The notes under the pieces are model-generated. The model saw only the letters and a program-made list of their open reading frames with translations, did not search any database and was not told the DNA's origin. The position numbers and the translations under genes were made by a program. From Patescibacteria group bacterium (GTDB taxonomy: Bacteria > Patescibacteriota > Microgenomatia > Levybacterales > UBA12049), in contig DASYZL010000006.1 of the NCBI GenBank assembly GCA_035946335.1, positions 175,664-239,663 of the forward strand: DNA of 64,000 nucleotides, in the 5' to 3' direction. Each line of letters starts with the position of its first letter. Position 1 is the stretch's first letter. Positions 25,917 to 39,880 of the stretch are shown piece after piece.

Positions 25917-26206
25917 TCCGCGATAGCTCAATGGTAGAGCAGGAAGCTGTAAAAGTGCAGCTTCCAGAAGTAATTCTGGATGAAACATGGGGTGAATTCA
26001 GGGAAGCCAATACGGTAATCCTGAGCCAAATTTGGTGAATGGTATAAGAGTAACCAAAAAGGTGCAGAGACTAGAAGTGAGGAACCAATCCAATACGCTT
26101 CACAGCGCCCCACATCCTAAAAAGGATGATGATATAGTCCATGCTTTTTGGAAACAAAAAGGTTTGTGTAACTTCAAGGTTCTAGGTTCGAATCCTAGTC
26201 GCGGAG
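25917..26206 (+). tRNA. tRNA-Asn(GUU) interrupted by a group I intron; exons 25917..25950 and 26169..26206
   Basis: The spliced product folds as a cloverleaf. The 7-bp acceptor stem is TCCGCGA/TCGCGGA with U1-A72 and a G73 discriminator, both typical of bacterial tRNA-Asn. The D arm is GCTC/GAGC, the T arm is CTAGG-TTCGAAT-CCTAG, and the anticodon loop is CU-GUU-AA. Confidence 0.8.
25951..26168 (+). ncRNA. Group I self-splicing intron (IC3-like) inserted between anticodon positions 35 and 36
   Basis: P1 forms between the exon end AGCUGU and the internal guide GCAGCU, with a U-G pair at the splice site. The R element (GGTGCAGAGACTAGAAG) and S element (GATGATATAGTCC) form P7. A Q-like GAGCCAAA is present, a P9 hairpin (CTTTTTGGAAACAAAAAG) precedes the 3' splice site, and the intron ends in omega-G. 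Confidence 0.8.
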
Positions 26207-27391
26207 CAAAAAATCTCTTATTATAACCGCATGATTCTCTTGTAATACTGAGAAAATCGGAGTATAGACAATTTTAACAATCTTCTTATCTTGCACAATT
26301 AGCTTCTCAAAGAAGAACCGTAGGTAATGGCGTTTAAGGAATTTGGGAGCTTGTAAATATGTAGTATGGATATTTCTGGTAAATGCTAAAACCTCCTCGA
26401 TTAAGTTTACGTCCATATTTGCGCTATTTTCTATCTCCTGAATAAGATTGTTTAAGTTGGTAATCTTATCATTAACTTCTGTGTGCTTGCGTTGGTAGGC
26501 TTCTCTGTCTATTGTGCCGTCAATAACAGCATCTTCAAGTTTATTTCTTTTGATTTCTAATACTGTTTTTTGGTTAATAATACCTTGCTTTTGTGCATCA
26601 ATGGTCCTTCTGTTTTCTGCTACGACATCCTTTGCTTTCTGAACAACTATGTCTATAAATTCTGGGGTAAACTGCATTTTCTCTATTTCTTTTTCAACCT
26701 GTTTTTCCAATGCGTCTGCTTCAACGTAGAGGGCAGGACAGCCGTTTCTATCTCTCTTTTGGCAGTGGTAGTAGTGGATAATGCCTTTTCTCTCAAGAGA
26801 GTTAATCTTGTGCTTATCTGCGGTATATCTTTGACCGCAGTTGGAACAATACATAAACCCTCGCAAAAGGTAGTCATGGGTTCTTTTCCTGACAAGGAAA
26901 TCCCTATGTTTCGCTAAAACATACTGGCAGGTATCGAACAAATCCTTTGTAATAATTGGTGCGTGTTTGCCAATTCTAGACTCTCCATGCCAACGTATTA
27001 TGCCGTAGTAAAAGGGATTTTTGAGAATATTATTTATCACGCTATGTCCAATTATCGTACCAGTTCTTGAGAGTATATTTTTATCAGAAAGCCAATCTTG
27101 CAGTTCGAGAATACTGTGATTGCCAGTAGAATAAATCTCAAACATTTGTTTTATAACTGGTGCTACGTACGGGTCTGGTTCGCATGTTTTCTTTTGGTCT
27201 TCCTCTCCGACACTTCGATAGCCGATATATAAGGGGGACGGTTGCCATCCCTCTCTAAACTTTTGCGCTAAAGCATCTCTTGTTCGTTGTCCGTTTACTT
27301 CGGACTCCCATTCAGCGATAGAAGCCATTAGATTGCCAATTAGTCCGTCAGAAACATCACCTTCCTGAACAGACAGTAGTTTAATTGCCAT
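26195..27391 (-). CDS. Large serine recombinase (integrase), C-terminal segment (recombinase domain, zinc ribbon, coiled coil); out of frame with its N-terminal segment
   Basis: The alpha-E helix region, a Cys cluster (CSNCGQRY...CQKRDRNGC) and a coiled coil are present. The stop codon overlaps the tRNA 3' end. Confidence 0.75.
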   Translation of the reverse strand: MAIKLLSVQEGDVSDGLIGNLMASIAEWESEVNGQRTRDALAQKFREGWQPSPLYIGYRSVGEEDQKKTCEPDPYVAPVIKQMFEIYSTGNHSILELQDWLSDKNILSRTGTIIGHSVINNILKNPFYYGIIRWHGESRIGKHAPIITKDLFDTCQYVLAKHRDFLVRKRTHDYLLRGFMYCSNCGQRYTADKHKINSLERKGIIHYYHCQKRDRNGCPALYVEADALEKQVEKEIEKMQFTPEFIDIVVQKAKDVVAENRRTIDAQKQGIINQKTVLEIKRNKLEDAVIDGTIDREAYQRKHTEVNDKITNLNNLIQEIENSANMDVNLIEEVLAFTRNIHTTYLQAPKFLKRHYLRFFFEKLIVQDKKIVKIVYTPIFSVLQENHAVIIRDFLLRD

Positions 27392-27686
27392 AATTTCTCA
27401 TCTCCTTTCGTATATTCGCAAAATCTCCAACATTCCTGAACAATCTATCTAATTTGTAAAAAATGAGTGCATCAACTGGGTCTTTCTTGAGAAGCGTGAA
27501 CATTTCCTGAAATGCAGGTCTATCAGTTGTTCTTGCGCTTTTTCCGTCATCAGAAAAAATTCTTTTGATTTCATAGCCGTGCATTTTCGCATAATCAACA
27601 CAAGCTCTTTTTTGGTTATCAATAGAGAATCCCTCTTTAGCCTGTTCTTCTGTGCTTACTCTTATATAAATGTAACAAGTTTTCAT
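27381..27686 (-). CDS. Large serine recombinase, N-terminal catalytic (resolvase) segment; a frameshift lies relative to the downstream segment
   Basis: YIRVSTEEQ contains the catalytic Ser, followed by DRLFRN. It overlaps the C-terminal ORF by 11 nt in a different frame. Confidence 0.7.
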   Translation of the reverse strand: MKTCYIYIRVSTEEQAKEGFSIDNQKRACVDYAKMHGYEIKRIFSDDGKSARTTDRPAFQEMFTLLKKDPVDALIFYKLDRLFRNVGDFANIRKEMRNYGN

Positions 27687-33642: not shown

Positions 33643-33870
33643 TCACTCAAGCAACTCAGACATTTTTACTCCTAAATATCGTGCAATTTTATCAAGCGTA
33701 GCTATTGATGGGTTTCGGACGCCTTGTTCGATAAAGCCAAGGTAAACAGGTGTTATCCCGATTTTCTCCGCCATTATTACTTGGGAAACATCCTTATCTT
33801 GTCTTAGCTGCTGTATTTTCTTTCCAACACTTTTTGGGATACGAGAATAATATTTTTTCCCTTTTGTCAT
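33643..33870 (-). CDS. XRE-family HTH transcriptional regulator
   Basis: QQLRQDKDVSQVIMAEKIGITPVYLGFIEQG HTH. Confidence 0.75.
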   Translation of the reverse strand: MTKGKKYYSRIPKSVGKKIQQLRQDKDVSQVIMAEKIGITPVYLGFIEQGVRNPSIATLDKIARYLGVKMSELLE

Positions 33871-34311: not shown

Positions 34312-35484
34312 CTAATTCAAGAAATTATTTCCTTTTCCTAAATTACATTTTTCGCAAAGCGTCTGCAAGTTTTCAAATATTGTTCTTCCGCCTTTTGAAA
34401 ATGGTACTTTATGGTCAATGTGTAGTCGGCATTGAGAATCTGTTGCTGGACTTGCTCCGCATTTCACACACTTGAAGTTATCTCTACTTAAAATTTTGTA
34501 CCGTAAACCGAGACCTACTTCTCTTTTTTCAACAATTAAAGTATTTGCTGTTTGTTTTATTATTTCTACAGTTTTTGTTGTTTTGGATTTAATGTCAGTG
34601 GGTTTTTCATGTTCTATAATTTCTTCAAATTCTTTTTCTTCTTGGTTCATTCTCACCACAAATGCCTCAAGTGCTTTACGCCAACTACCAAAATGTCCTT
34701 TATAAGTATTTGCTTTAATCTTTGATGGCTGAATGTCCATCTCTCCATACTTTGGTTGTCTTCCATAGCGTGTCCAAACAGTTAATAAATTCTCAAAATA
34801 TTCTTCGTCGGAATATGCCCGATTATATTTTTCAGAGATTTTTAATCCTGCTTTTTCCATAGCAGTAGCCCATGTACCAAATCGACGAGTTGCAACTCCC
34901 ACACTCATAACATTAGAGTAATGTCTTACATCTTCGTGGCTTACTGATTCCGTATTGAGCAACTTGGCAATTCTTTTTAGCTCATCAAGTACGTCTTGAT
35001 TTGTTAATGATTTTGCTTTTGGCTTACGCATGTTCTCTGTAATGATTGTTCCAGAATATTTATGACCAACACCTGCTTTTTCTAACGCTTGCTGCCATCC
35101 ACCAAAACGACTAATAAAAGTACCTGAGCTAATTTCACTATGTTGGTCAAAGTCCTTTCTTCTTATGACTTTCACATCAAGTGCTTCTGCAACTCTTTTT
35201 AATTCCTTGAGTACTTCTTGGTCTGTTAGCTGTTGCGCCTTTTGCAAGCGCATTTTATCTGTAATTTCTGTACCAATGTATTTATGTCCCAATCCAGCAG
35301 TAGTGAGTGCATTTTCCCAACTGCCAAATCTAAGTTTTACTCCGTCAGAACTCATTTTTGCGTGCTTGTTGTAATCAGTTTGAGTTAGCTTTTCCTTACC
35401 GACTAATACATCAACACGTTTTATTTCTGCAATAACATCTTCATCAGGGCAATTCCTCGGTAAATTGCTTAATTCAAATTTCAT
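34312..35484 (-). CDS. HNH endonuclease with four N-terminal homing-endonuclease-associated (HNH) repeats
   Basis: There are four repeats of about 60 aa (FGSWENALTTAGLGHKY / FGGWQQALEKAGVGHKY / FGTWATAMEKAGL / FGSWRKALEAF). The C-terminal core is CVKCG...HIDHKVPFSKGG...CEKCN. Confidence 0.75.
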   Translation of the reverse strand: MKFELSNLPRNCPDEDVIAEIKRVDVLVGKEKLTQTDYNKHAKMSSDGVKLRFGSWENALTTAGLGHKYIGTEITDKMRLQKAQQLTDQEVLKELKRVAEALDVKVIRRKDFDQHSEISSGTFISRFGGWQQALEKAGVGHKYSGTIITENMRKPKAKSLTNQDVLDELKRIAKLLNTESVSHEDVRHYSNVMSVGVATRRFGTWATAMEKAGLKISEKYNRAYSDEEYFENLLTVWTRYGRQPKYGEMDIQPSKIKANTYKGHFGSWRKALEAFVVRMNQEEKEFEEIIEHEKPTDIKSKTTKTVEIIKQTANTLIVEKREVGLGLRYKILSRDNFKCVKCGASPATDSQCRLHIDHKVPFSKGGRTIFENLQTLCEKCNLGKGNNFLN

Positions 35485-35561
35485 AGCTATTTTTCACTTC
35501 CTACTATTATATCATTAGCTTTTCAAGGCTAGAAAAGGATAAATAGTAATGTCGGAAGTGT

Positions 35562-36359
35562 TTATTTTCTAAGAAGGTTAATCGAGGGTTTTCCTAACAT
35601 TGGAGTTAATTCACTAAAAGAACTGTCTAATGTTGTTACTGTAAGATGCTTCGGACAATCAGTAGCAATAACAACGTCTCCGATAGCTTTATTTATTGGA
35701 TATTTATTTGCGTTTTTCACATCTTTTTCAATTTCTACTAATTTTGCATATATCTTATTTATCACTTTTGATTTATCAAAGACGTCTTTATTTGAGAGTA
35801 ATTTTTTTAATTCTTCTATGTGTGCCTTCCAAAAAACATCTAATGGTATTGATTTTCGGCTATTGTAAGCATCAACAAACGGCTCGTAATCATCTTTACT
35901 TCTTAATTTGAATCTGACTATCTCATCTCCTGCAAAATCTCCCACCATGCTTAGTAAATCAGTATCAAAGTTATTAACTAAATTAAAAATTACTGCCTCT
36001 ATTTGCCTTAAATATTTTGCGGTATCTTGGGTAGGGATGGATTTGTTCACACTTGCCATTATTGCCTGTAAAATATGAATATTCTTTAATTCTCTTTTCC
36101 CGTACTTTTTAGACCACCAAGCCAAAGCAAGAGAAGGACTATCAAGAAGTTTCACACGATAATAAAATTCTACCATGTTTCTTATAAAGCCTGTCTTAAA
36201 TTCATAGAGGACAAAATGAGAGGAATATAAGACGCTATTTTGCGGTAACAATCTCAGGATACTCCCATCCTTATCAGGCACAAATTTGCTTATTTGAATG
36301 GATGTTTCTAGGAGTAATCGTGTGCTTTTATCAGTTTTCTTCTTTTTGTTTTTTGCCAT
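35562..36359 (-). CDS. Hypothetical protein (265 aa), third gene of a three-gene operon
   Basis: Overlaps the upstream gene by 29 nt. No recognisable motif. Confidence 0.45.
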   Translation of the reverse strand: MAKNKKKKTDKSTRLLLETSIQISKFVPDKDGSILRLLPQNSVLYSSHFVLYEFKTGFIRNMVEFYYRVKLLDSPSLALAWWSKKYGKRELKNIHILQAIMASVNKSIPTQDTAKYLRQIEAVIFNLVNNFDTDLLSMVGDFAGDEIVRFKLRSKDDYEPFVDAYNSRKSIPLDVFWKAHIEELKKLLSNKDVFDKSKVINKIYAKLVEIEKDVKNANKYPINKAIGDVVIATDCPKHLTVTTLDSSFSELTPMLGKPSINLLRK

Positions 36360-36912
36360 GATTATTAGTGCCTTTCAACAAATACATTTTCTTCCTATAC
36401 AGTTGCTTTGAGAACATTGATAGACCATCCCAATTTACTTCACCCTCATTAAACCTCTTTAACTCTGTTTGGAAATATTTAATGTCTTTTTTATCCATTG
36501 TTTCCCAGTTATTATTCTCAAATAGTAATTCGAGCATGGATAATAAAATCCTTGTCTCTGATTTTTGGGTTAAATAATCAGCGTTTTCTTGTAGTAAGTC
36601 TTTGATATTACTGATATGTGCCAATGCGTCTTCTGTCTCCAAATTTTCCCAGGCAGAAAGTTCGTCATTTATCTTTTTTATTAAGGCATAGGTATTGTAG
36701 GAGATGTAATTACTAGAGTAATTTGTTCTGTAATATATGTTATTGTCTCCGTTTTCGCCAATCGAATGTATCGCAGGGTTTTGTGAAGAAATTTTTGTCA
36801 TTTCGTCAACATCCTTCTCAGGTGCTTTAGGCAAATATTGAGAATTGTCCTTAAAGTATTCCTCTAAGTTTACTGCTGTTTGTTGAAAAGTATATGAAGA
36901 TGCTATGCTCAT
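36331..36912 (-). CDS. Hypothetical protein (193 aa), second gene of a three-gene operon
   Basis: Overlaps the upstream gene by 4 nt (ATGA coupling). Confidence 0.45.
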   Translation of the reverse strand: MSIASSYTFQQTAVNLEEYFKDNSQYLPKAPEKDVDEMTKISSQNPAIHSIGENGDNNIYYRTNYSSNYISYNTYALIKKINDELSAWENLETEDALAHISNIKDLLQENADYLTQKSETRILLSMLELLFENNNWETMDKKDIKYFQTELKRFNEGEVNWDGLSMFSKQLYRKKMYLLKGTNNHGKKQKEEN

Positions 36913-37616
36913 AATGTTTGAATATAACCAAGATAATCTTTTGTTACTCGTAAATTTTCTTTAATTGCTTTGTCTAATTTTTCTAATGTGTTTTCGGCAG
37001 TGAGTCCACCCTCAATAAATATTGACACATCAATAAACAGATTACTGTCTTTAATATCTGTTTTATTATCTGGATAACTGCTATTAAAAGCCTTGATACC
37101 TTGGTCTTTCTTTACTGGCCCTATTTGCACATGATTAAGAAAACCATTTTTTGAGCCATCCAATACAAAAACAGAATCTCTTGGTGTATCTGCTGATATA
37201 TTTTTTACATCTTCATTTTGTGCGTAGAATTTTTTATATATTAATTCTACAAGTTCATTAAATTCAAAACTTGCTTCAAGAACTTGAGTGTGTCTCACTT
37301 CAAGTCTTCGGATTTGATTAACGCCAAGTTCTTTTGTGCTTTTGGTAAATATCTTGCTAATATAGTCATATAGTTCTTTAGTATCGTTCTTTCCTTCGTT
37401 CAAATAGGTAATAGTATCGAAAGTAATTTGTAAGATTTTCTTTTCGGAGGGAGAGTATAATGCAATATCTTCGTGTTTTTGTGCCGCCCATTCTTCAAAC
37501 TTATCTTCAACACCTGCGGCAAGAGAAGCGGTGCTATCAAATGTTTTAATTGTAGGACGGAATTTCACTTGTCCTACGATTCGATGTAGTTTTTCCGTTA
37601 AAAAGGTTTTAGCCAT
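36909..37616 (-). CDS. Hypothetical protein (235 aa), first gene of a three-gene operon
   Basis: Preceded by a perfect TATAAT -10 box. Confidence 0.45.
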   Translation of the reverse strand: MAKTFLTEKLHRIVGQVKFRPTIKTFDSTASLAAGVEDKFEEWAAQKHEDIALYSPSEKKILQITFDTITYLNEGKNDTKELYDYISKIFTKSTKELGVNQIRRLEVRHTQVLEASFEFNELVELIYKKFYAQNEDVKNISADTPRDSVFVLDGSKNGFLNHVQIGPVKKDQGIKAFNSSYPDNKTDIKDSNLFIDVSIFIEGGLTAENTLEKLDKAIKENLRVTKDYLGYIQTL

Positions 37617-37699
37617 ATCTATCTCAATCTAGGTCGCTATTATACCCCAATCAGCTTCAAAAGTAAAAAATACAATGATGCTCTACATATAATCTATCA

Positions 37700-38175
37700 T
37701 AATTTGTAAAAAACAAGATAGTAAGGTTTAATTATTTTTCTCCGACCTGCCGTACAGCTCCTAGCGCTTTATTTAGCGTTCGTTTCTGCTGAACTGATAT
37801 AAAGAGATAGTTCTTGATTTTTCTACTGTCCTGAGCTAAATGGCTGTTTTTATCTCAAAAGTATAACCGTTAGACTTTCTTCGCAAGAAGGTTATAGAAA
37901 ATCCTCATATAATTTCCAATGTAGCAATATTAACTTACCAGCCTCAAATTTACGGTTGATAGGTATGTCCACCTCTGCACCATAGTCCCTAACCTACACT
38001 CCTAGCCTCCTCTCTACGATACATATAAGAGATATTTTTTGGCAGATGCTTGGCTATCTTCCCTGTATGTATCGTAATATAGGCATGAAGCAGTGAATTA
38101 GAGGCTAGGGAGGTCATACATACCAGCCGTTCTTTTGTGCCTGAAATTTTATTTTAGTTACATTGTCAAAGAACA
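37700..38175. other. ORF-free structured region of about 480 bp (candidate ncRNA or replication origin)
   Basis: Nested long-range inverted repeats CCTAGCCTCC...GGAGGCTAGG and CGATACATA...TATGTATCG, plus a GNRA-capped hairpin TATAACC...CTTCgcaaGAAG...GGTTATA. Confidence 0.4.
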
Positions 38176-39543
38176 TTATTCATTATCCTGTGCTTCAAGG
38201 CAAGTCGGGATACCAAGTTCATCAATCGTTTGCTGTGCGGTTGAAATAATCATGTTCTTCCAGTACTGCTTTGACTCTTTTTGTGCAAACTGTACAGAGA
38301 AGCCGTCATGTTGCCATAGAACTATTTTGAAGGTACGCTTGCTTTTGTTCTGAATGGCGAGGTCAATCACGTCTGCCAGCAGTAGCATTTCCATAGACTG
38401 GGCGAGTTGGGCTAAAATGCTTCTGTGCGAGAAATCCTTGAGAGACAAGAATCTTCCGTAGCAATCAGTTGCACCGCCATTACCAGACATTTTGCTGAAT
38501 TGTTCAGTACGAGCCTTCCACATGAAATTGATAATCGGGTGGGAAATAAAGCGGTTAAAAGAATTATCACCAATCGGGGAGAGGATTTCTTTAATCTTTT
38601 TTTGTCCTGCTCCGTACATCATAGCATACAGACTTCTTTTGAATATTTCTTTTGTTTTGTCGTTTAGTTCAATCCCAAAAGTTGTAAATAAATCTTTCCA
38701 AATAGAATTGCCTTCTTTGAGATAGTGTTCTACCTCTGGAATAGTCCACAATTTAGAAGCGATTGCCAACTGGCATGATTTCAAATCAAATTCTGTCCAG
38801 CCTTTAGTTAGGGCGTGGCGTATATCCCTCTGCAAATAACAAATATTTTCGCTGAATGGATATATCCTTACTGATTTTTTTACAGGAGCGTAAAGAGGCT
38901 TGTATTCGTCTTGAATGGCTCTAAGCAAATCGAGTTGATTGTCGGCATCCTCTTGTTGGAGTGCGACTGCTTTTGCCTTTGGCATATTGACCATCATTTC
39001 TTGAAAAGTGCGGACTGGGAGGTTGTTCATATACGCAATAATCTCTTTTGCGCTCTGAACACCCGCATTACTCATTTGCTTCATCGCTTCCTTGTAATTC
39101 AAGTCTCGGAGCTGTTGCTGTTTATACTGAGTAAATGGTTCTCCATCTCTCAAATATACTCTGCCTGTATTTTCCCATAGGCCCTGTCGTTCATTGGCTA
39201 TTGCCTCAAGAACTTCTGCATCCCAACGGCATGTTTTAACGACCCTGCATCTGCCTTCGATATAAGAATAATCCGACCACTCGAAATGATGTACGTTACG
39301 GGAAAACTCAATAAGAAAATCAATCGAGCGATAGTTTTTGTTCTCAATCATGTAATATTTTCCTTCGCATTGTGCGATTAACTCCCAAGGAATTTTTACA
39401 TACCCTGTTTCCCACTCACGAAAACCGAATATAAGATGTCCGATAAAATTCCAGTACGCAGGGTTATTCCCCAGCGTAGGAAAATTTCGTTTGAGTATGT
39501 CCCGAAACATAGGCGAGACCGTCCTATTGGTTATTATCATCAT
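38176..39543 (-). CDS. Family A (T7-like) DNA polymerase-like protein, polymerase domain only; motif A E to Q, motif C HDE to HDG
   Basis: Motif A EFDLKSCQLAIASKL (T7: DASGLELRCLAHF). Motif B KRSLYAMMYGAGQKKI (T7: KTFIYGFLYGAGDEKI). Motif C VLWQHDGFSV (T7: AWVHDEIQV). No exonuclease domain. Start taken at MMIITN. Confidence 0.5.
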   Translation of the reverse strand: MMIITNRTVSPMFRDILKRNFPTLGNNPAYWNFIGHLIFGFREWETGYVKIPWELIAQCEGKYYMIENKNYRSIDFLIEFSRNVHHFEWSDYSYIEGRCRVVKTCRWDAEVLEAIANERQGLWENTGRVYLRDGEPFTQYKQQQLRDLNYKEAMKQMSNAGVQSAKEIIAYMNNLPVRTFQEMMVNMPKAKAVALQQEDADNQLDLLRAIQDEYKPLYAPVKKSVRIYPFSENICYLQRDIRHALTKGWTEFDLKSCQLAIASKLWTIPEVEHYLKEGNSIWKDLFTTFGIELNDKTKEIFKRSLYAMMYGAGQKKIKEILSPIGDNSFNRFISHPIINFMWKARTEQFSKMSGNGGATDCYGRFLSLKDFSHRSILAQLAQSMEMLLLADVIDLAIQNKSKRTFKIVLWQHDGFSVQFAQKESKQYWKNMIISTAQQTIDELGIPTCLEAQDNE

Positions 39544-39880
39544 GGCACTTCTGGAAAAATGAAGGTGGCAGTGCCATGACACGCAGAACACTAACGCACG
39601 TATAAAAAACCTTTGGGTTTTTCGGTAGTCTCGATTTCTATGTGGATTTAGTAGTTTCTATTTTTATTTCGATTTGCTACACTGCCAACATGACTGCTGG
39701 ATGGTTAATTTGCAATTTTTTAATCTCAAGCCATCGTTGCCTGAGTTCGCCAATGTACCGTAAATCCTGAAATGCCTGAATGATTGAGGTAAAATCTATA
39801 GTTAGAGTGAGCCAAGGCTGGGGGAGCAAATTAGTCCTGTAGTTTTATTCTAATTTTGTTTACTTCAAATATCCTCTTTT

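Follow-up and report, generated by a model that had tools for sequence, protein, structure and literature searches.

The window (the whole stretch of DNA analysed here, 64,000 nucleotides) contains a 13.6 kb island integrated at tRNA-Asn, at one end of which lies a small gene resembling that of DNA polymerase I (PolA-like). The tRNA-Asn(GTT) gene (25917..26207) is interrupted by a 218-nt group I intron, and the minus-strand gene of a large serine recombinase terminates within the 3' end of the tRNA gene. An 8-bp direct repeat, GGAGCAAA, is found at 26203-26210, in the tRNA-Asn 3' end, and again at 39823-39830, the second site being the point at which similarity to two related loci (L001 and L002) starts; the island has a G+C content of 0.359, compared with 0.412 and 0.384 in its flanks. 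The recombinase of the window is frameshifted, so the island may have lost the capacity to move or replicate in this copy. The Pfam matches of the island comprise recombinases, regulators and cargo, with no other replication protein, initiator, primase or helicase recognisable among them. An Xre-type HTH gene (33643..33870) and a small ORF in the island are homologous to neighbours of the polymerase gene elsewhere. The polymerase gene and the non-coding element described below lie 0.3-2.0 kb inside one island end, the element itself 1.7-2.0 kb inside. Two 26-nt direct repeats (39625..39675), shared with L001 only, lie on the upstream side of the polymerase gene and form a rival candidate for the replication start proposed below.

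A gene-free interval between the polymerase-like gene and a three-gene operon

Two minus-strand genes are separated by an interval of 559 bp (37617..38175), with the following features around it:

38176..39540 (mechanical ORF to 39591), minus strand: minimal PolA-like DNA polymerase gene, upstream of the interval, 454 aa from the start of homologue P0001 (454-471 aa for the ORF 38176..39591)
37639..37667, minus strand: promoter-like site TTTACT-17-TATAAT for the three-gene operon, outside the conserved element
36909..37616, minus strand: ORF of the three-gene operon, downstream of the interval
36331..36912, minus strand: ORF of the same operon
35562..36359, minus strand: ORF of the same operon, followed by an HNH endonuclease gene

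An earlier note on this DNA had flagged most of the interval as devoid of genes, and this holds: the longest ORF entirely within 37617..38175 is 42 aa, and no long ORF appears there when TGA is read as sense (codes 4/25). Since indels of 4, 10 and 1 nt relative to L001 break the reading frames, conserved coding is ruled out, and a hidden gene, with the standard code or with TGA as sense, was rejected.

The adjacent gene is predicted to encode a family A DNA polymerase

The upstream neighbour had been called PolA-like, and profile comparison, the AF2 model and PDB matches all confirm the assignment. A profile of 21 homologues matches Taq/Klenow Pol I, and the motif A Asp, the motif B pattern (K-x3-K-x3-Y-x3-YG) and the motif C HDG, aligned to the Taq motifs, are conserved; D252, K297, K301, Y305, G310, D412 and G413 are invariant, H411 is nearly so, and a nearly invariant Gln occupies the position of the Pol I steric-gate Glu. 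The AF2 model (pLDDT 92.5) has PDB top 50 matches that are all Pol I or Pol theta, reaching E about 1e-8 against Klenow/Taq/Bst, and the top viral model matches of the fold are family A DNA polymerases only. On the strength of the model and the profile, we are confident that the neighbouring protein adopts a family A DNA polymerase fold. A retron or DRT system was rejected on the same grounds: there is no RVT fold, the top structural matches are all family A DNA polymerases, and no PADLOC retron/DRT model applies to the polymerase.

The small DNA-polymerase-I-like gene of the island is undescribed. Pfam, NCBIfam and PADLOC hold no family for it, and none that is informative for the proteins on either side of the interval; PADLOC returned one marginal match (E 0.014), to a type II methyltransferase model, and Pfam DNA_pol_A is reached at E 0.001 by 2 of the 21 members, which makes the family a very distant branch. 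It nevertheless comprises at least 1142 clusters at 50% identity (E<=1e-30), lacks a Pfam model of its own, and is found in many phyla on small integrative elements, beside serine/tyrosine recombinases and HTH regulators; FtsK-gamma proteins lie near the polymerase in L004 and L006/L007. IMG/VR contains no relatives of the polymerase, and no description was found in the literature searched of a family A polymerase on elements of this kind, or of an RNA that partners such an enzyme.

Architecture of the non-coding element

As judged from sequence comparison, a conserved element of about 330 bp (about 38153..37831, minus strand) is non-coding and travels with the PolA-like gene. In the window it begins about 25 nt past the polymerase stop codon and, read 5' to 3' on the minus (gene) strand, consists of P0, P1, a G-rich tract, a box, an AT-rich spacer, block B and block C:

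37929..38153, minus strand: core, a long imperfect hairpin (outer helix P0 and inner hairpin P1), from the covariance model and fold z-scores
38100..38131, minus strand: P0 5' arm AACGGCTGGTATGTATGACCTCCCTAGCCTCT, within an inverted, shorter copy of the conserved 3' block
38015..38076, minus strand: P1 inner hairpin, arms 38066-38076 and 38015-38025 (11/11 complementary), variable 40-nt loop
37952..38013, minus strand: P0 3' arm, G-rich conserved tract (GAGGAGGCTAGGAGTG ... GGTGGACATACC ... CCGT), sequence-conserved in 6/6 loci
37949..37970, minus strand: box GGACATACCTATCAACCGTAAA, conserved more widely than any other sequence in the element, without consensus pairing
37879..37948, minus strand: AT-rich spacer with conserved TGGAAATTAT, between box and terminal hairpin
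37858..37878, minus strand: block B, palindrome/hairpin AAAGTCTAAC-G-GTTATACTTT followed by a short T run, terminator-like, conserved in L019, L002 and L027
37831..37846, minus strand: block C CAGCCATTTAGCTCAG, identical in the window and L019 only, the end of detectable conservation

The base of P1 is ACG...CGT, and its loop is variable across loci, often C-rich and 40-55 nt long. The sequence-conserved G-rich tract after P1 reads GAGGAGGCTAGG..., and the distance from box to block B is about 60-70 nt in the window, L019, L002 and L027. Short direct repeats (AAATTTCAGGC / AAATTTGAGGC and GGCTGGTA) flank the imperfect palindrome. In the window and in L001, the 5' arm repeats the conserved 3' block in inverted and shortened form, with an inverted box copy on the plus strand at 38112..38146, so that the search model also matches the opposite strand (mirror copy, plus strand 38013..38153, 43.7 bits, E 5e-9) and the element is dyad-symmetric in these two loci. 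Block C (TAGCTCAG) was considered as tRNA-like and rejected, as ARAGORN gives no tRNA there in the window or the loci.

The hairpins reported in the earlier note can be placed on this map. Its outer inverted repeat is present, CCTAGCCTC at 38001-38009 pairing with GAGGCTAGG at 38101-38109 (the first coordinate had been about 10 nt off), as is the inner one, TACGATACATA at 38015-38025 with TATGTATCGTA at 38066-38076, complementary at 11 of 11 positions; the long-range stems quoted there are P0 in the version of this lineage. The hairpin with a GNRA tetraloop also exists, on the plus strand at 37862..37896 (TATAACC...GGTTATA, CTTC-GCAA-GAAG), but its GCAA-capped inner stem is lost in L019. Block B overlaps this hairpin, and the pairing conserved there is that of block B, not the GNRA stem.

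The element recurs with the polymerase gene and not with the operon

In L001, L002, L003, L019 and L027, whose polymerases are 42-86% identical, the same rare PolA-like gene is followed by a homologous element, and this recurrence in five other contigs supports the proposal that the stretch holds a functional non-coding element. The search model (a profile and covariance model from the conserved core) scores 129 bits in the window (minus strand, 38078..37929), 127 in L001 and 150-153 in L002, L003 and L019; L027 is weak. In L001, where the polymerase is 86% identical, the alignment spans the gene and 290 nt downstream at about 80% and ends at 37889. The polymerases of L002, L003, L019 and L027 are 42-55% identical to that of the window. 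For L019 (48%), long identical runs extend to 37831, and from the G-rich tract to the end of block C the 166 aligned columns are 73% identical, a non-coding identity greater than protein divergence predicts. A C5-methyltransferase-like gene is inserted in L019 between polymerase and element, and the element is retained.

The earlier note had considered an RNA partner of the adjacent genes or an origin for the neighbouring polymerase-like gene. The genes beyond the element differ in every locus, and tblastn with the three-gene operon proteins gave no match among 62 related loci (L001-L062); since the downstream genes are replaced from locus to locus and the operon is without relatives in those 62 loci, the element belongs to the polymerase gene and not to the operon. 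The suggested link thus stands for the polymerase-like gene, behind which the element lies in 6/6 subclade loci, and a partnership with the three-gene operon is rejected. In summary, the element exists, is conserved, contains two covarying hairpins and is linked to the polymerase gene, not the operon.

Conservation is uneven at the margins. Block B is absent from L003. In the sister clade (L063-L067), 87-154 nt lie behind the polymerase gene, or about 90-155 nt when L005 is included, and give no model match; the short gap in L063-L067 implies that the large structured element is not needed by every family member. The box core, ACAT[AC][CT][CT]TAT[CA], nevertheless occurs directly downstream of the polymerase gene in the more distant L005, L063 and L064; this pattern has 10 matches in 924 kb, 4 of them directly behind the polymerase gene, and one other match (33788) lies inside the HTH ORF. 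On the operon side, 37617..37830 is without counterpart in L001 and weakly similar in L019, and the same is true of the flagged part, 37700..~37830, which is probably spacer only.

These distributions bear on whether the element could be a recombination or attachment site, or a selfish palindromic (MITE-like) insertion. Either identity would suit a long imperfect palindrome with short flanking direct repeats on an island that encodes serine recombinases. The island junctions, however, lie elsewhere, at the GGAGCAAA repeats (26203-26210 and 39823-39830) outside the element, on which basis an attachment site was rejected; the element is single-copy in the window and in each locus sits solely at the polymerase-proximal position; plasmid, phage and IMG/VR collections queried with the element or its box gave no match; and palindromy beyond P0/P1 is confined to the window/L001 lineage. 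We therefore regard this explanation as very improbable.

Folding statistics and covariation

An 11-nt perfect inverted repeat arises in 34 of 500 dinucleotide shuffles, so the repeats alone are marginal, and the fold of the whole 559-nt interval has z-scores of -1.3 (minus strand) and -2.7 (plus strand). The 225-nt core (37929..38153) gives z -3.72 (RNA, minus), -4.22 (RNA, plus) and -3.36 (DNA parameters), with 0/200 shuffles as stable, and is clearly non-random. The weak single-sequence statistics of the whole interval, along with the poor conservation of 37700..37830 in L001 and L019, are what would be expected of an AT-rich spacer with chance hairpins and no function. Against this stand the 127-153 bits of the model in four other contigs, the shuffles of the core, the compensatory changes in two hairpins and a non-coding identity above the protein-divergence expectation, and we consider an absence of function extremely unlikely. 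For 37831..38153, the chance and the recombination/selfish explanations are largely excluded; chance spacer is possible for 37668..37830.

The comparison of homologous loci that the earlier note had proposed revealed compensatory changes in two hairpins. With figures that rest on 4-6 related sequences, P1 cells are 82.9% paired vs at most 43% when slid, four pairs have changed on both sides, and 6/500 shuffles reach this pairing; block B cells are 91.7% paired vs at most 44% when slid, with two compensatory pairs and 25/500 shuffles reaching the pairing. The related copies number six and represent about three independent lineages. P1 is kept with compensatory changes in L001, L002, L003 and L027 (arms ACGTATCTA/TAGATACGT in L027) and degraded in L019. 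P0 is found in every locus, the 3' arm pairing with a stretch upstream of P1, with differing sequences (duplex z -4.2 to -0.6), e.g., in L002, where CTACCAAGTAATGAGCCT pairs with AGGCTCAGTTCTTGGTAG at 16/18 positions (duplex z -4.2); its covariation is not above shuffles (158/500). The nested P0/P1 architecture also appears in the MFE folds of L002, L019, L003 and L027, whose fold z-scores are unremarkable (-1.4 to +0.06). RNAalifold finds no consensus helix beyond P1 and block B, and more than half of the conserved length is kept as sequence, not structure, including about 100 nt without consensus pairing. The counts of G.U vs A.C in P1 (4:2) assign neither a folding strand nor RNA vs DNA. 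A purine/G-rich tract as an R-loop signature was rejected, as a purine content of 0.74 over 50 nt lies at the 75th percentile of the background.

A large structured RNA of the GOLLD, ROOL or HEARO type, one of the possibilities raised earlier, is not borne out. Rfam 15 matches only the group I intron (25941..26161) in the whole window at gathering thresholds, and at E<=10 only three chance-level snoRNA/sRNA matches, far below gathering, fall in 37500..38300; the homologous loci L001, L003, L019 and L027 give no match at the element. The consensus, with only two hairpins, a variable outer helix and about 100 nt of conserved unpaired sequence, is not of that type.

Possible roles as RNA or regulatory DNA

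The covariation raises the question of whether the element works as RNA, either as a structured 3' UTR of the polymerase mRNA or as a processed small RNA ending at block B, an option that we find doubtful but worth weighing. An RNA of this kind might bind the polymerase, control its level (copy number/stability) or act as RNA partner or template as in retron/DRT systems, roles that are equally doubtful. In addition to the compensatory changes in the two hairpins, P0 recurs with different sequences and positions in six loci, which single-strand folding explains better than a duplex-DNA-binding protein would. L002 is the only locus in which a terminator is called: on its gene strand, block B has the score of a canonical intrinsic terminator, which would put the element on one transcript with the gene upstream. 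At two positions where the window and L001 differ, G.U pairs result on the gene strand only, and an unusual sugar selectivity is conceivable given the Gln that replaces the steric-gate Glu. Consensus pairing is, however, missing from most of the conserved length (about 100 nt and the spacer), and the Rfam result, the fold z-scores in L002, L019, L003 and L027 and the small set of related sequences behind the covariation statistics weigh against an RNA. So does the search for promoters: no sigma-70-type promoter was found inside the element in any locus, and an internal promoter for a small RNA running from box to block B was rejected, as there is no consistent -35/-10 across loci. Stop codons interrupt all frames of the conserved block, such that a DRT2-like coding template is not evident. 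That the window and L001 have a further copy on the opposite strand would be unexpected of an RNA gene but is common among DNA sites.

Other features of the same region would be accounted for by ordinary regulatory DNA where two modules meet, i.e., a terminator or insulator together with operators for island regulators such as the Xre-type HTH protein, and no replication role. In L002 and L027, the palindrome of block B is perfect (10+1+10) and flanked by A and T tracts, and it is both terminator-like and a typical dimeric-protein site; an Xre-type HTH protein is conserved alongside the polymerase in the window, L003, L004, L006/7, L009 and L063-65; and in L063-L067 the box core falls where a TTGGCA-N16-TATACC promoter for the next gene is readable. 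Yet it is rare for terminators and operators to retain about 300 nt of sequence and architecture when the accompanying polymerases share 42-55% identity and the genes downstream change, L003 has the HTH gene without block B, and no convincing box repeat was found near the HTH gene or elsewhere in the island (one match, 33788). On balance, we judge a purely regulatory role unlikely.

Discussion

Our data suggest, as the leading and still tentative reading, somewhat short of an even chance, that the element is a cis-acting replication-initiation or priming region for the island's own polymerase. The inverted repeat, sequence-specific box, AT-rich stretch and hairpin are typical origin parts beside a replication gene, and the element has the position of an origin beside its gene, directly downstream of the polymerase gene and with the inverted repeats P1/P0 conserved. 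A DnaA-dependent or iteron-type origin was rejected: no match to TTATCCACA with at most one mismatch, as a DnaA box, occurs in 37617..38175, and the element itself shows neither tandem nor dispersed iterons. Known family A replicons (ColE1, T7, mitochondrial DNA, rolling-circle single-strand origins) start from transcripts or hairpin-templated RNA primers. We rank transcript-fed initiation first because a family A polymerase cannot start chains, the island has no initiator among its Pfam matches, the placement resembles that of pIP501/pAMbeta1, and no internal promoter was found.

As a proposed mechanism, the excised island would be a circle, and its sole recognisable replication enzyme would be the minimal family A polymerase, needing a 3'-OH primer. 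Transcription of the polymerase gene would enter the element and end at the block B hairpin, and the transcript, or the strand that it displaces, would fold as P0/P1, thereby exposing the box and the AT-rich stretch. An RNA 3' end made there, or a primer laid on the hairpin, could then be extended by the island's polymerase. Transcription through the element, priming and origin activity are all steps that we infer. A bolder version, in which the polymerase gene and the element constitute a self-contained replicon that lacks a Rep protein and starts synthesis from its own transcript, at the folded 3' end, or from the exposed hairpin, strikes us as rather unlikely.

Several known systems share parts of this arrangement. 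In ColE1, the structured RNA II preprimer is extended by a family A polymerase without a plasmid initiator protein, and RNA II is transcribed from a separate promoter about 550 nt upstream and is accompanied by an antisense RNA I. The element would resemble ColE1 in using a structured transcript as primer for a family A polymerase, but an RNA II-type promoter and an antisense RNA I are not detectable at it. The ssoA origins and the mitochondrial light-strand origin are long imperfect hairpins of 150-300 nt, non-coding and orientation-specific, that fold only when single-stranded; RNA polymerase primes on the hairpin, and Pol I or Pol gamma extends. Unlike in those settings, no HUH Rep or relaxase gene was seen in the island. 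In the Inc18 plasmids pIP501/pAMbeta1, the origin, with an inverted repeat that is essential, directly follows the rep gene, and the Pol I start requires transcription through the origin from the replication gene (PMC4981023). Like Inc18 oriR/oriE, the element is a non-coding site directly downstream of a replication gene, with an inverted repeat and an adjoining AT-rich stretch. Inc18 differs in that a RepR/RepE initiator acts there with host Pol I, whereas here the adjacent gene is the polymerase itself and no Rep-type initiator is visible; in addition, the minimal oriR measures 52 bp vs about 330 bp for the element, and blastn against the plasmid collection gave no sequence similarity. As the adjacent gene is not of the RepE/RepR family, the resemblance to pAMbeta1/pIP501 is mechanistic only and does not amount to membership.

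The retron msr/msd and the DRT2/DRT9 ncRNAs likewise place a structured non-coding element beside a polymerase gene, often on defence-carrying mobile islands. Their enzyme is a reverse transcriptase and their RNA lies upstream with its own promoter, whereas the present gene has a Pol I-like fold with the element downstream, and the element is without an open template frame. Considered as a whole, the island recalls pipolins, which two reports describe as integrative elements encoding their own DNA polymerase (PolB), commonly flanked by direct repeats and serving as defence islands (PMC5695915, PMC11551731). Both are integrative mobile elements with their own DNA polymerase; the island differs in having a family A instead of a family B enzyme and a large serine recombinase. 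Unlike the pipolin PolB, the island polymerase is without known primer-independent activity, and a priming site would therefore be needed.

If the element is a replication start site, it would define, together with one gene, a testable minimal replicon of about 1.7 kb that would stand for a large unannotated PolA-like family on integrative elements of many phyla, and would show how a primer-dependent polymerase comes to serve a mobile element that has neither a dedicated initiator nor a primase. If gene and element form a self-contained replicon, this would be the PolA-based counterpart of the PolB pipolins and a new mode of post-excision replication for small mobile elements. Were the element to function as RNA instead, family A polymerases would gain their first structured RNA partner. 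In both cases, it offers a practical marker with which such islands can be found and delimited.

Family of the PolA-like protein and features upstream of its gene

The PolA-like protein, a minimal family A DNA polymerase (38176..39540, minus strand), belongs to a large and unannotated family of 1142 clusters at 50% identity (E<=1e-30), for which Pfam holds no model. The family architecture consists of the polymerase domain only, together with a novel N-terminal region of ~220 aa, and a nearly invariant Gln occupies the position of the steric-gate Glu of Pol I.

Upstream of the gene lie two features:

39625..39675: two 26-nt direct repeats, GTAGTCTCGATTTCTATGTCGATTTA-like, in the gap that separates the polymerase start from a remnant of the recombinase C-terminus
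about 39595..39615: terminator-like hairpin AAAAACCCAAAGGTTTTTT, after the direct repeats

Both are common to the window and L001 (one of the related loci carrying a homologous polymerase gene) only, and could constitute an alternative cis site, e.g., iterons or an operator.

Sequences downstream of the polymerase gene

At the end of detectable conservation of the hairpin element, the ~330-bp conserved non-coding element downstream of the polymerase gene, the 16-mer CAGCCATTTAGCTCAG is identical between the window (37831..37846, minus strand) and L019 (1581..1596), a related locus whose polymerase is 48% identical. The 16-mer resembles a tRNA 5′ acceptor followed by the start of a D-arm; no tRNA is predicted at either of these sites. 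In L019, an inserted ORF separates the hairpin element from the polymerase gene:

L019 599..1243: cytosine-5 DNA methyltransferase-like ORF, 214 aa, with motifs DLCGGTGS and PPC

In the three Verrucomicrobia-type loci (L010, L012 and L013), nothing corresponding to the hairpin element was observed behind the polymerase gene, and a 50-90-nt pyrimidine tract lies directly 3′ of the gene, within the first ~100 nt after the stop codon. On the gene strand, pyrimidines make up 82-92% of the tract, a proportion that exceeds the 95th percentile of the background in L010 (86%) and L012 (92%) and equals it in L013 (82%).

Downstream of the hairpin element in the window (within 34312..37616, minus strand), three ORFs of 235, 193 and 265 aa, with no match in Pfam, NCBIfam or PADLOC and no relatives among the related loci, precede the gene of an HNH endonuclease that carries four homing-endonuclease-associated repeats. 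This stretch is probably island cargo.

Junctions of the island and the large serine recombinase

Copies of the 8-bp direct repeat GGAGCAAA lie 13.6 kb apart, one (26203..26210) at the 3′ terminus of tRNA-Asn and the other (39823..39830) where similarity to related elements starts, and they probably represent both junctions of an integrative island. The G+C content of the island is 0.359 vs 0.412 and 0.384 in the flanks. The features at these junctions are:

25917..26207, plus strand: tRNA-Asn(GTT) gene, split in the anticodon loop by a group I intron
26195..27686, minus strand: large serine recombinase ORF, whose C-terminal end (...RDFLLRD*) lies within the tRNA
39829..39677 (39677..39829), minus strand: recombinase C-terminal remnant, 48 codons, homologous to the recombinase C-terminus in L002

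The intron comprises 218 nt (25951..26168; 107 bits, Rfam), and ARAGORN detects the tRNA only with introns allowed or after manual intron removal. In L002 (1..6000), the recombinase and polymerase genes are set apart by a segment that holds a riboflavin-synthesis operon plus two small genes. One full and one partial copy of the block encoding the recombinase C-terminus border this segment, which has the look of cargo or host DNA that the element picked up at its junction.

In the window, the recombinase ORF is broken by a frameshift at 27381..27391, inside the catalytic domain. In L001, the counterpart of the 48-codon segment sits after the recombinase. Judging from the sequence, recombination between the two GGAGCAAA copies would carry the recombinase ORF in frame (TTG CTC C|CC CAG ...) into the 48 additional codons at 39829..39677, so that the C-terminus of the recombinase would differ between the integrated and the excised state of the island.
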